A stretch of DNA of 64,000 bases. Origin: Escherichia coli. GTDB lineage: Bacteria > Pseudomonadota > Gammaproteobacteria > Enterobacterales > Enterobacteriaceae. Where the stretch lies: NCBI RefSeq assembly GCF_041248615.1, contig NZ_CP158426.1; one strand, written 5' to 3'. Below the pieces are notes generated by a model that was given only the letters and a program-made list of their open reading frames with translations, was not told the origin of the DNA and searched no databases. Positions 4,968 to 10,014 of the stretch are shown here, one piece after another (within the stretch, counting starts at the first letter, position 1; each line of letters opens with the position of its first letter). The translations under genes and the position numbers were made by a program.

Positions 4968-7900
4968 TTACCACTGAATACCGGCACCGAGCGCGGCGGA
5001 GTATTCACCCTGGCTATTGGTACTACCTTGTAATTTGTAGACCCAACGACCATTGGCGCTCACCATCGACACACCTAAAGCAACAGCCGATTCACCATTG
5101 TAAGTACCGCCACCAATAGAGGCCATGCTGGCACCTGGAGTGTAAGCCTGCGGCAGACCGGTCATTGCCATTGCAGAAGCGATACCACCGCTCAACTTGC
5201 TTTCGGTTTTGGACAGTTTGTTATCCATCTCAACCATCCGCTGATCGGTGTATTGCTTCGTTTCCTGCACGCTTTGCTTCAACTGCGCATAGTTCACTGC
5301 GTCGTTGTTGTTGACGCCAGCGGAGACGTTGCTGATGCGAGTCGTACCGCCATTACCACCACCGAGAGTGATGTTGCTGTAGTCTATAGAACCATCAGCT
5401 TTGGTGTCGTAACGAACGCCGCCTGCCTCAGAAGACTTCAGCTGCGAAACGTTAACCGCATCGGTGGCATTAACACCTGCAGCAACGTTGGTGATACGAC
5501 GCTGGTTGGTAGAAGAACCCACAGAGATGGTGTTTTCTTCGTTGGCCACGGAACCGGTACCCAGCGCGACGCTGTTGTCAGCGGCAGCAATGGAACCAGA
5601 ACCAATTGCAACACTGTCTTTACCCTGCGCGTTGGCATCTACGCCATCGGTGTTGGTCTTGAAGTATTTGGTGCTACCGGTGGTTACGATATCGCCAATG
5701 CCGTTTTCGATATTGGTAACGCGAGTATCCAGATTCGTCACCTGATTGTTCAGGTTAGTAATGCTCTGGGTATTCTGGGAAACCTGCGCGTCCGTTACTT
5801 TCAACTGACCCACGTTAACCGCATCGGTATCAGCCGAACCAGCCGCGACGTTGGTGATCTGACGTTGACCGTCTTCACTGCCGACAGAGAACTCACCCAC
5901 AGAGTTCTGTGGTGCGTCCATGTTGTAGGCGGTGTAGCCAGTTTGAGCACCACGAGTCGTCTGTGAGCCATTACCCATAGCAATGCTGTTTGCATGGTTT
6001 GCACGCGCGTTGCTACCGATAGCAATGCCATTAAGTGCATTCGCGTCCACGTAGGCACCATAACCGATACCAATACCCGCATTACCATTAACGATAGTTT
6101 TCGCGCCCATTGCTAGCGAGTCTTCACCTACTGCCAGTGAATCTTCTTCCGTTGAGTTGGCGTGGAAGTATTTGGTCGGCGTGGTAGCGACTGCACCAAT
6201 GGCATTTTGCAACTGGCGAACCGTAACGGCGTCATGGGCTTCGGAACCATCGGCTACGTTGATGATTTGACGATATTTACCGTCATCACCAATAGACAAC
6301 GCACCAAGTAGTTCGCCATCCGTGGTGTCATAACCAATCACAACACCTTCTTCCGACACGCTGGTGTCACGAGAACCTTTAACTATTACACGGCTGGAAA
6401 CGGAACTGCTACCCAGGGCAATACCGGTATCAACGGTGCTGCTGCTACCTTGACCAATGGCTACGCTGCTTTCGCCTGAGGCGACAGCGTTATAACCCAC
6501 AGCCGTAGCGCCAATACCTGAAGCGCTGGCATCGTTGAACGCTAAGCCGTTGTCGTTGGTACGTACATAGTTAATGCCCGCACCGTTATCTTCGATGTAG
6601 GTTTCGCTGGTGTTACCGGCAAGCTGATTGATGATTTCGCTGTTCTGCTGGATCAGCATATTGGTGTTAAACAGCTGAGAACCGTTGATGGCGTCAGTGC
6701 TGCCTTCGCCAATGTTACCATCAGCAACGTTTGTGATGATGCTGGCCTTGCCATCATGGCTGGCGTTGTAGGCACCTGCGCCGTCATTGGCCGTTGCATC
6801 CCACAGCAGAGCGTTATCGTCGAGCGCATCTAGGGCGTCACCGACGTTGTTGTACTCGGCATTTGCAATGGTGTAACTCGGCGCAGTAATAGAACCATCA
6901 GCGTTGACTTCTGCGTCACCACCCAGCGCATCAGCGATGTACTTGTTGGTGGTATACAGTTGTGAGCCGTTAATAGCATCGCTGCTGGTGGAGGAAATTG
7001 CACCGTCTGCGACGTTAGTAATGACGCTGGCCGTTTTATCTACTCCGCGACCGGCGCTAAATGCACCATTACCATCATTGGCTGTGGCATCCCACAGCAG
7101 GGCGTCATCCAGCGTGGTATCGATCGCTTCCAGCGCGTCACCGACGTTGCTGTAACTGCCACCAGCGATGGCATAAGTCGGTGCGGTGATTGTGCCGTCA
7201 GCATTGACTTCTGCGTTACCACCCAGAGTATCGGCAATGTACTTGCTGGTGTCATAGAGCTGTGAGCCGTTAATAGCGTCGCTGCTGGTAGAGGAAATTG
7301 CACCGTCTGCAACATTAGTAATGATGCTGGCCGTGTTATCTGTCCCGCGACCGGCGCTAAACGCACCGTCACCGCCCTTGGCGGTCGCATCCCAGAGTAG
7401 GGCATCACCCAGTGATGTGCTAAATGACGTGTTAATGGCAGCCAGAGCATCACCGACGTTATTGTAGTCAGTACCACCAATAGTGTAGGTTGGCCCGGTT
7501 AATACACCCGCATCGCTGATATCAGCACCACCGCCAAGGTATGACGTAAATGAATCAGCTAAGCCATAAAGTTGTGAGCCATTAATGGCGTCAGTGCTGT
7601 CAGAGGATACAGTGCCTGCCAGTAAGTTGGTGATTTTGCTGGTGGCATCGGTGCCGTGCGCGGCGCTGAACGCGGTGCCATTCCACAGCAGGGCATCGTC
7701 TTTAAGGTCGCCAACGGAATCCGTCAGGGTATTGATACTGTTAGTGTTGGTGGTGATATTGGCAGTATTGGTCGCTACGTTATCGTTGGTGGTTTTCAGC
7801 TGAGAACCGTTAACCGCATCCTTACTGGTATCAGAAATAGCGCCGTCTTTAACGTTGGTGATGGTACTGGTAGTATCTGTACCATGTGCCGCACTATATG

Positions 7901-9287
7901 CCTTTTTAAGGGAGTCCCATTGTAACGTATTATTGTCCAGGCCCGTTAAGGCGTCGCCAACAGTGCCGAAAATACCACTTTTCAGCCTGTAATTTGGGGA
8001 AGTAACGACGCCTTGCGCATTGACGGTAGCCCCCCCACCAAGATTGTCCGCTACTGACTTACTGATAGCATAAAGCTGTGATCCATTGATGGCATCAGTA
8101 CTGGTAGTGCTGATATCACCTGCTGCCATATTGACAATTTGTCGCTGAGCTGTTGTGTTACCCACAGAAACAGTATCCGCGTCAGTCGCTACAGAACCAG
8201 CACCCAGAGCAACTGAATTTTTCCCCTGAGCACTGGCTTGAGCACCAATTGCAGTGCCATTTTCTAAACCGGCATAACTGCCTTGTCCAAGAGCAATAGC
8301 ATTTACACCACCTGTAATACTACCATTACCCAGCGCGATAGCATTTGCGCCGTCAGCTTTATTCCCTTGACCGATGGCAATTGCGCCAGCCGCTACTGCC
8401 TGACTTTGATTGCCCAGAGCAATCGTGTTGTCGACATCTGCAATACTGCCGGAGCCCAACGCGATACTATTAAGTCCATTTGCCTCCGCGTTAGTACCAA
8501 CTGCCGTCGCATTTTCAGCAGCTTTGCTCTCTGCACCCATAGCAATCGCGTTTGCGGCGTTGGCGGCGGATAGTCTACCGAATGCGAGGCTGTCTACGCC
8601 AGCTGCAGCACTGTTGCGGCCTACTGCAATCGCGTTAGCTGCAGATGCGGCGCTACTTGCACCCAGCGCCATTGCATATTCTTTCGACGCATTAGCCGTG
8701 GCTCCGAGGGCGATACTCATAATTCCTAAGGCCTTGCTTTCACGTCCAAATGCGATGGCGTCATCAGCACCAGTCTCTGCGTGATCCCCTTGTGCAATAG
8801 AAAATTCACCTACTGAGTTCGCATAACGACCAAGTGCGATTGAAAATCCACCCGTTGACGTTGCCGATGCACCTATAGCGAGGCTTCGCTCACCTGCTGA
8901 GGTAGTGTTAATCCCTAACGCCACTGATGCTTCGCCAAGCGAATGGGTCTTAGCACCGAGGGCTGTTGACCACCTTCCGTCAGCAGTTGAGTGATAACCT
9001 ACTGCGGTGCTGGAGCCACCCCCGGTGTCTGTAAAACTATTTGCTTTTGCATCTTCACCGATAGCAACCCAGCCTGTTCCTGTTCCCTGGCCATAATTGA
9101 CGCCCTGACCGTTGTCCCTTCCTGCCTGAGCCTGTACCCCAAACGACGACAACATTCCCCCAGCAACCAGGGCAGAAATTAACAGCTTACTGCGCCCGGA
9201 TTTCTTGCCACGGCTTTTTGCCGTTTCACTGGCAACGGTGTAACTGCCTGTTGCCGGATTCCAGATAACTTTAAAAATTTTGTTCAT
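4968..9287 (-). CDS. upaG: trimeric autotransporter adhesin (YadA family; UpaG/EhaG/SadA-like), 1439 aa
   Basis: Extended autotransporter signal peptide [19 protein letters not shown]...; N-terminal YadA-head-like Ala/Gly/Ser repeats; ~100-aa repeats with DAINGSQLY motifs; C-terminal YadA anchor ending ...[11 protein letters not shown]. Symbol is by synteny (lldP-yibL gap) and memory, less certain than the product call. Confidence 0.85.
6600..8130. repeat. ~300-bp (about 100-codon) tandem repeats inside the adhesin stalk region
   Basis: Near-identical DNA blocks begin at 6903 and 7203, with more diverged copies on either side; protein shows repeated [38 protein letters not shown] units. Confidence 0.6.
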
Positions 9288-9330
9288 TATTGATGCTCTC
9301 TATTCCTTGATATAAGCGCAGAAGCTGCAT

Positions 9331-10014
9331 TTATTTTTTGTTTTTTCGCTGCCGAGTTTCAGCAGGTTGAACAGTGTCGAACTGGAGATTGGCCATATTG
9401 ATGGACAACTTCAGATACTTCAGGTTATTAGGCGAAACGCCTTTTAATGTCAGATTAATGTCTTGCCATTGACCAGGCATTAATTGCAGAGTGGAATTCA
9501 TGGTGGTGTTGAAAAGTAATTGTTGCCACTTTGCCAGAGCTTTGGCATCGGTGGGTCTTTCATTGCCCCATGTCGCATGAAAGCCAATATTTGATACGGG
9601 AACGCTTAAAAGGTTAACCAGCGAAATACGAATAACACTGCCATTTTCAACCGCATCAATAGCCAGCACCCGGCCTGCCAAACCGACCGATCCGTTATTT
9701 AAAATGAAATATTGTGTTTGTGCTGGGTTAAATTCTGTAAAGACAAATTCGTCCTGCTTGTCTTTAACCGCTTTCACCACGCCAGCGAGCGTCTTGGTAC
9801 TATTTATGACAGTAGTTTGTTGTTTTTCAAAATGTTCTATCTTTCGCTTATCGAGTTCCTGCTGTTTCTCAAGCGCCTCAATTTTGCTTTTTTGCAACTC
9901 TTGCTGTGTAACGAGGTCGTCGACCTTACTCGCTTTTTCAATATAGTCACACCCTGCCAATAAGCAGAGAGGCACTATTATTAACACGCTTAACAGTGTT
10001 TTCTTTAGGTTCAT
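9331..10014 (-). CDS. inner-membrane lipoprotein with coiled-coil region (SadB-like candidate adhesin biogenesis partner)
   Basis: 227-aa ORF; lipobox LLAGC followed by Asp at +2 (inner-membrane retention signal); coiled-coil-like ELQKSKIEALEKQQELDKRKIEHFEKQQ; 43 bp upstream of the adhesin on the same strand. Confidence 0.65.
   Translation of the reverse strand: MNLKKTLLSVLIIVPLCLLAGCDYIEKASKVDDLVTQQELQKSKIEALEKQQELDKRKIEHFEKQQTTVINSTKTLAGVVKAVKDKQDEFVFTEFNPAQTQYFILNNGSVGLAGRVLAIDAVENGSVIRISLVNLLSVPVSNIGFHATWGNERPTDAKALAKWQQLLFNTTMNSTLQLMPGQWQDINLTLKGVSPNNLKYLKLSINMANLQFDTVQPAETRQRKNKK

Follow-up and report, generated by a model that had tools for sequence, protein, structure and literature searches.

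The trimeric autotransporter adhesins (TAAs) UpaG, of uropathogenic Escherichia coli (UPEC), and EhaG, from enterohaemorrhagic E. coli (EHEC), were characterised between 2008 and 2012, and in the YadA-type membrane anchor of such proteins four beta-strands per chain are combined into a 12-stranded barrel. PMC7247748 summarises the functions of UpaG, EhaG and the Salmonella adhesin SadA, which include autoaggregation, the formation of biofilms and attachment to host cells or matrix, and PMC5012682, citing Totsika 2012, counts UpaG among the H-NS-repressed autotransporters. The Salmonella protein SadB was described by Grin et al. (2014, PMC3953254) as an inner-membrane lipoprotein, a location predicted from the aspartate at position +2 and borne out by fractionation together with mass spectrometry; its trimer has a coiled coil of nine heptads and three beta-sandwich domains. 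Co-expression of SadB resulted in more, and more protease-resistant, SadA at the cell surface, and the authors proposed that SadB keeps the adhesin chains in register near the Sec machinery (PMC3953254). Homologues of SadB were found to be restricted to Enterobacterales in a 2026 survey (bioRxiv 10.64898/2026.01.22.700529). Here we analyse a stretch of 64,000 nucleotides from E. coli (contig NZ_CP158426.1; "the window" below means this whole stretch), whose minus strand carries a gene for a small lipoprotein and a gene for a TAA side by side (Table 1). We hold with high confidence that these two genes are an E. coli sadBA-type operon, situated at the locus that encodes UpaG in uropathogenic and EhaG in enterohaemorrhagic strains. 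The basis for this assignment is homology, domain content, gene order, prevalence and deletion anatomy.

The lipoprotein matches SadB

The lipoprotein begins with MNLKKTLLSVLIIVPLCLLAGC, followed by DY, and thus contains the lipobox LLAGC with an aspartate at position +2 (the translation reads ...LCLLAGC/DYIEK). When all PDB sequences were searched with phmmer, its sole match was 4C47, the Salmonella SadB structure that is labelled there as an "inner membrane lipoprotein" (E=3e-70). Residues 23-227 align to residues 3-207 of 4C47 without a gap and with 53% identity, which covers the whole mature length of the protein; identity is 44% over the first 62 aligned residues, corresponding to the coiled coil, and 57% in the remainder. 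This ungapped alignment suggests an N-terminal coiled-coil region, a C-terminal beta-sandwich (MATH-like) domain and a homotrimeric state for the lipoprotein. Similarly, its retention in the inner membrane is predicted from the aspartate at +2, the same criterion whose outcome was verified for SadB.

RefSeq annotation for the window was taken from a 100% identical record, NZ_LT599825.1 (E. coli NRZ14408), in which window position 1 is position 192001. The lipoprotein is named there as a "DUF3251 domain-containing protein" (WP_001590872.1), and in other RefSeq genomes as a "SadB/YajI family lipoprotein". The DUF3251 label was not reproduced with the Pfam library used here.

Domains and relatives of the adhesin

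The reading frame of the adhesin is intact, with 1439 uninterrupted codons and the C-terminus ...GAGIQW, and RefSeq gives its product as a "YadA-like family protein" (WP_192459646.1) and not as upaG or ehaG. An unbroken frame of this length, with domain matches as significant as those given here, lies far outside what chance would produce. A Pfam scan, made on two overlapping pieces of the protein, returned at least nine significant YadA_stalk/neck matches, together with YadA_head matches (at least seven with E<=1e-3) that form a run at residues ~90-377 and recur in more copies near 922, 1082 and 1220. The anchor matched the Hia anchor structures 3EMO (E=2e-22) and 2GR7 (E=1.6e-16), and the YadA anchor was also matched. 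Of the solved SadA fragments, 2YO0 (E=1.7e-135, 89% identity) and 2YO3 (E=7.1e-91, 79% identity) matched best, with weaker matches to the distal SadA fragments 2YNZ (E=4.6e-29), 2YO2 (E=2.3e-20) and 2YNY (E=4.8e-10) and also to 3ZMF. Within E. coli, the C-terminal ~1060 residues are 80% identical to EhaG of O157:H7 and 83% identical to UpaG of Nissle 1917. Judged by its position and by its stalk and anchor, the adhesin is a predicted orthologue of these proteins that carries a distinct head allele.

Named TAA families were also considered as the identity of the adhesin and rejected. NCBIfam models for such families (Ata, EmaA, Vomp, BimA and YadA) gave six matches, all of them far below the cut-offs; for example, the score was 330.5 bits for Ata against a cut-off of 2500, and 152.3 for YadA against a cut-off of 750. 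It is domains alone that the adhesin and those families have in common.

Organisation of the locus

On the minus strand the genes are ordered mtlA-mtlD-mtlR, yibL, lipoprotein, adhesin and lldP-lldR-lldD, while yibT, which lies between mtlR and yibL, is encoded by the other strand, and the immediate flanks are lldP (3015-4670) and yibL (10575-10937), as annotated in RefSeq. Coding-strand prediction found neither a terminator nor a promoter in the 43-bp gap between the lipoprotein and adhesin genes. The same spacing of 43 bp occurs at the O157:H7 and Nissle 1917 loci, and the sadB-sadA spacing in Salmonella is 44 bp (PMC3953254). A terminator-like hairpin follows the adhesin gene; K-12 has kept it, and there it comes after yibL. 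Upstream of the lipoprotein gene lies an AT-rich leader of 560 bp (10015-10574; GC 0.32 in the 10001-10500 bin); an Rfam scan of the whole window at gathering thresholds gave 0 matches, and thus no known RNA element in this long leader. The shared strand, the 43-bp gap and the terminator after the adhesin gene together suggest that the sadB homologue and the adhesin gene form one operon.

A preliminary description of this DNA, made from the sequence without database searches, had proposed a 227-aa lipoprotein with the lipobox LLAGC and an aspartate at +2, separated by 43 bp from a 1439-aa YadA-family adhesin with an extended signal peptide and a C-terminal anchor, the pair lying between lldP and yibL in a SadB/SadA-type arrangement. 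The open reading frame list and the translation confirm the lipoprotein and, with RefSeq, the gap and the flanks; the matches to the extended signal peptide region (ESPR) and the anchor do the same for the adhesin, and the SadB/SadA-type arrangement is upheld by the matches to 4C47, to 2YO0 and 2YO3, and to EhaG and UpaG. Similarity of the lipoprotein to SadB and a YadA-type anchor, the absence of which would have told against that description, were both found.

Table 1. Features of the sadBA-type locus, in window coordinates
Feature	Coordinates	Strand	Evidence
sadB homologue, 227-aa predicted inner-membrane lipoprotein	9331-10014	-	Open reading frame list, translation, 4C47 match
Lipoprotein signal peptide and lipobox, codons 1-22	9949-10014	-	Cys22 followed by Asp23
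TAA gene, 1439 aa, positional orthologue of SadA/UpaG/EhaG	4968-9287	-	Open reading frame, Pfam, PDB, synteny
Extended signal peptide, ESPR at residues 1-48; probable end ...SSFGVQA at ~residue 53 (predicted cleavage site)	9129-9287	-	PF13018, E=1.1e-15
N-terminal YadA-like head repeats, ~residues 90-380, the allele-specific part	8148-9020	-	YadA_head matches at 90-377
936-bp in-frame deletion junction relative to the 1751-aa allele; 27-bp exact repeat ACCGATGCCACCAGCAAAATCACCAAC, encoding TDATSKITN	7626-7652	-	Breakpoint scan
Remaining ~100-aa (300-bp) tandem stalk modules	6662-7412	-	Tandem Repeats Finder (TRF), period 300, 2.0 copies, 81% matches; repeat families D1, D2, D4
YadA-type membrane anchor, residues 1379-1439, terminal Trp (aromatic)	4971-5153	-	PF03895, E=2e-19
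Spacer between sadB homologue and adhesin gene, 43 bp	9288-9330	-	Open reading frame coordinates
Candidate sigma-70-like promoter TTGACA-18-TAAAAT, 11/12 matches, ~190 nt upstream of the lipoprotein start	10207-10236	-	Consensus match
Intrinsic-terminator-like hairpin, 13-bp stem and T-run, 24 nt after the adhesin stop	4915-4944	-	Consensus prediction

Distribution of the pair and its loss

Genome counts given here and below refer to 5426 complete E. coli genomes. The gene end that encodes the adhesin anchor was found in 4154 of them, always as a single copy and always on the chromosome, and the lipoprotein gene was found in 4149 by sensitive blastn. Megablast detects the lipoprotein gene in just 1879 genomes, since the DNA of the EhaG-linked allele shares no more than ~72-75% identity with it. 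The two genes are present together in ~77% of the genomes and absent together elsewhere. The head allele of the window adhesin is itself common, being present at 95% DNA identity or more in 593 genomes.

K-12 MG1655 lacks the pair: its yibL-lldP spacer is 371 bp long and gene-free, in keeping with the preliminary description, by which K-12 has no genes there. The lldP-proximal ~275 bp of this spacer, which include the terminator hairpin, correspond to 4671-4946 of the window. The remaining ~95 bp on the yibL-proximal side (5029-5125 of the K-12 locus, L002) contain GCCGGATGCGGCGTGAACACCTTACTCGGCCTA and stand in place of window 4947-10574, a segment of 5.6 kb. This segment has a putative likeness to the consensus of a repetitive extragenic palindromic (REP) element, which would fit a secondary rearrangement in K-12. 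A search of the window for the REP-like sequence of the K-12 junction, allowing up to 3 mismatches, gave 0 matches.

The preliminary description went further and presented the pair as an accessory locus inserted between lldP and yibL. That the two genes are a horizontally acquired island, with the gene-free arrangement of K-12 as the ancestral state, would agree with the empty site in K-12, with the ~23% of genomes that have neither gene, with the AT-rich composition of the lipoprotein gene (GC 0.43) and of the spacer upstream of it (GC 0.32), and with alleles that are unusually diverged for one species. We nevertheless consider such an island very unlikely. The pair is present at the same site in ~77% of the genomes, and the K-12 segment just described, with its presumed REP likeness, would fit a rearrangement; moreover, no integrase, insertion sequence (IS) element, tRNA or flanking direct repeat was found at the locus, and the adhesin gene has a GC content of ~0.52, like its neighbours. 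Grin et al. (2014, PMC3953254) reported that the position between mtl and lld is kept across Escherichia, Salmonella and Shigella, with a 5-kb deletion in K-12 that covers both genes. The gene-free state of K-12 is therefore derived, and the insertion put forward in the preliminary description is not sustained.

Deletion is accompanied by a second form of loss. In three closely related complete genomes (99.5% identity; one is NZ_CP195442.1, positions 869-7394 of locus L007) the same adhesin allele is split by the IS5-like element ISEc35 and annotated as two pseudogene halves, with the sadB homologue intact. This disruption in three close relatives shows inactivation to be another route by which the locus is lost.

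Diversity of SadB and its relation to the adhesin

SadB alleles in E. coli have diverged to a depth that is unusual for a chromosomal gene of one species. At the protein level the window lipoprotein is 88.5% identical to the UpaG-linked lipoprotein of Nissle 1917 and 65.6% identical to the EhaG-linked lipoprotein of O157:H7. By DNA identity to the window gene, the copies fall into discrete classes of 95% or more (745 genomes), 80-90% (1131 genomes) and 60-80% (2270 genomes), with hardly any at 90-95% (3 genomes); the alleles compared were window 9331-10014, L003 3055-3723 and L004 2470-3153.

Could the locus consist of matched helper-client allele pairs? SadB alleles would then be tuned to the passenger alleles or repeat numbers of their own adhesins, and the loss of stalk modules described below might adapt the length of the fibre to the lipopolysaccharide or capsule of the strain. 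If this were true, the helper would pick out a particular feature of its own adhesin, either N-terminal or in the repeat register. The setting for such pairing is that SadB alleles differ at up to 34% of residues and heads at more than 50%, with stalk and anchor more than 80% identical. The numbers of genomes in corresponding allele classes are similar for the two genes because adjacent genes are tightly linked, and strict matching is made less likely by Nissle 1917, where the lipoprotein is 88.5% identical to ours though the adhesin head is just ~48% identical. On balance we find such pairing improbable, and none of the results calls for it.

At the opposite extreme, the lipoprotein might have a function that is unrelated to the adhesin, for example a housekeeping role like that of YajI, so that the adjacency of the two genes would be historical. 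YajI is a paralogue of SadB with 14% identity and no linked autotransporter, and a direct interaction of SadB with SadA has not been demonstrated biochemically (PMC3953254), both of which would suit an independent role. The two genes are, however, present together and lost together almost without exception (4149 and 4154 of the genomes, as given above), E. coli lineages and Salmonella alike keep a spacing of 43-44 bp, and an effect of SadB on the display and protease resistance of SadA has been published (PMC3953254). Nor is the lipoprotein an orthologue of YajI: this candidate identity was rejected after BLASTP against K-12 YajI gave E=0.14 and a local match of 11/39, and the two are paralogues at the level of the fold only. 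An unrelated function is thus extremely improbable, and we continue with the lipoprotein as a SadB-type partner of the adjacent adhesin.

A short adhesin allele arising from loss of stalk modules

At 1439 aa the adhesin is shorter than UpaG of Nissle 1917 (1778 aa) and EhaG of O157:H7 (1588 aa), a difference that had been remarked on in the preliminary description and regarded there as consistent with variation in repeat number. This explanation proved right. The closest alleles in complete genomes encode 1751 aa (for example in NZ_OW967178.1) and 1518 aa (NZ_CP087377.1), and with the 1751-aa protein the window protein shares 100% identity, broken only by one gap of 312 residues. In DNA, the only other difference from the 1751-aa allele in 4320 nt is synonymous and lies at gene nucleotide 153. 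The missing segment is exactly four tandem modules of 78 aa, made up of a DALL-like motif, a neck and a short coiled coil. The 1518-aa allele holds one module of this kind more than the window adhesin, and UpaG has a similar 78-aa series. The locus is thus a clean example of a change in stalk length through the loss of whole tandem modules.

Tandem repeats are commonly collapsed during assembly, and the short length might be an artefact of this kind in the assembly of NRZ14408. An uninterrupted match to the junction was found in NRZ14408 (NZ_LT599825.1) alone among the complete genomes, and a single other nucleotide separates the gene from the 1751-aa allele; both would agree with a collapse. 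We judge this artefact to be very improbable all the same. Exactly this 1439-aa protein is known from 19 contigs, spread over several independent NCBI accessions, which indicates a real lineage-specific allele and not a collapsed assembly; the loss is in frame, comprises whole modules (4 x 78 aa) and falls at a 27-bp repeat, as expected of recombination or slippage; and the intermediate 1518-aa allele, with its one extra module, is present in other complete genomes. The 1439-aa form is accordingly treated below as a genuine allele.

Other features of the window

Several further features lie outside the locus. An Rhs toxin element beside yibF/yibH (17681-27203, minus strand) is broken into three pseudogene pieces in RefSeq, interrupted by the IS21-like ISEc12 (istAB, 21210-23512) and the IS3-like IS1397 (24756-26104), and what remains downstream of the broken element is a gene for an Imm57-family immunity protein (17681-18202) and, at 18571-18981, a hypothetical gene. 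Directly after aldB comes a type II toxin-antitoxin pair, HicA/HicB (34730-35342, plus strand). Between aldB/hicAB and the sgb/yia operon, positions 35414-39830 contain a glycoside hydrolase family 127 gene, a major facilitator superfamily (MFS) transporter and a divergent AraC-family regulator; K-12 presumably carries yiaW-yiaT at this position, and the segment may be another variable cassette.

Discussion

The results can be assembled into a model in which one transcript would span both genes, starting in the AT-rich region that lies downstream of yibL and ending at the hairpin terminator, a short way ahead of the lldP promoter region; repression of such an operon by H-NS would fit its AT-rich leader. 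The adhesin, as a predicted type Vc protein (trimeric autotransporter), would be exported by Sec under the guidance of its ESPR, which would also slow the process. Three chains would then form a 12-stranded outer-membrane barrel by way of the beta-barrel assembly machinery (BAM) complex, and the passengers would cross this barrel to build a fibre of YadA-like heads, necks and coiled-coil stalks that, as in characterised relatives, may bring about autoaggregation and the formation of biofilms and may bind host cells or extracellular matrix. A lipid anchor, with aspartate at +2, would keep the SadB homologue in the inner membrane, where an N-terminal coiled coil would join it into a trimer. If it acts as in Salmonella, it would raise the amount and the structural integrity of the adhesin displayed at the surface, and a SadB trimer near the Sec machinery may hold three highly repetitive, unfolded chains in register. 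In this lineage, recombination between tandem 78-aa stalk modules probably removed four of them and gave rise to the 1439-aa adhesin.

Some of our observations, and some of the published record, weigh against identifying the locus as a sadBA-type operon or against the model just outlined. With regard to the lipoprotein, hmmscan found no useful Pfam-A match, DUF3251 was unmatched at E<=10 and the sole match returned was ETRAMP at E=0.22; the NCBIfam scan likewise found no model for it. In view of these negative results, it is the PDB match together with synteny that places the lipoprotein in its family. With regard to the adhesin, the N-terminal alignment that spans the head (~380 residues) is 43% identical to EhaG and 48% identical to UpaG, and it follows from identities this low that the binding specificities of UpaG and EhaG are not transferable to this allele. 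The promoter candidate is a weak consensus match, and 12 promoter-like sites were counted where 8.0 +/- 2.8 are expected in shuffled sequence. Co-transcription, trimerisation, the helper and adhesive functions and H-NS repression are extrapolated from published relatives, so that expression and display in this strain would hold by analogy. Finally, the mechanism of SadB is only partly established even in Salmonella, where cross-linking, pull-down and phage display were inconclusive (PMC3953254).

The sadBA arrangement, including its occurrence in E. coli, has already been published, and apart from the short, repeat-deleted adhesin allele the locus is ordinary. Its importance beyond correct annotation is small: the sadBA operon, its position between mtl and lld, its occurrence in E. 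coli and its deletion from K-12 were all published in 2014. Some mild interest is suggested by the divergence of the head allele, by how strongly SadB alleles differ within E. coli and by the clean variation in module number. For annotation, a "DUF3251" or "hypothetical" gene beside a "YadA-like family protein" is best taken to be a SadB-type helper, and its neighbour an adhesin of the UpaG/EhaG locus. The window also represents a clinical isolate whose head allele is distinct from those of the two E. coli prototypes, and their binding or vaccine data should not be carried over to it uncritically.

Comparison with known systems

The Salmonella enterica pair is among the closest described systems. 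Like the window lipoprotein, SadB (STM3690; 4C47) has Asp-Tyr after the lipobox cysteine, and its gene lies upstream of the TAA gene, between mtl and lld; the two proteins are related by a gap-free alignment at 53% identity in which the coiled-coil part is the less conserved. SadA (STM3691; 2YO0, 2YO3, 2YNZ, 2YO2, 2YNY and 3ZMF) has the same domain vocabulary as the window adhesin, with a membrane-proximal stalk that is 89% and 79% identical in the two best-matching fragments, and we take its full length to be 1461 aa, similar to that of the window adhesin. The literature cited here contains no experiments on any E. coli copy of SadB.

The E. coli loci share both position and architecture with the window. 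In EHEC O157:H7 a 222-aa DUF3251 lipoprotein precedes the 1588-aa EhaG, and in Nissle 1917 a 227-aa SadB/YajI lipoprotein precedes UpaG (UPEC CFT073/Nissle 1917; 1778 aa), in each case with the same yibL and lldP flanks and the same 43-bp spacing. UpaG, EhaG and the window adhesin have in common the ESPR, the anchor and the same 78-aa and ~100-aa stalk modules; the window allele differs in having fewer 78-aa modules and a divergent head.

A functional parallel from further afield is the TpgA-AtaA pair of Acinetobacter, in which a small envelope protein is likewise encoded beside a TAA gene and promotes surface display of the TAA (bioRxiv 10.64898/2026.01.22.700529). TpgA is a BamE-like/OmpA-like peptidoglycan-binding protein on the outer-membrane side and bears no sequence relationship to SadB, whereas SadB is an inner-membrane coiled-coil trimer that occurs in Enterobacterales only.

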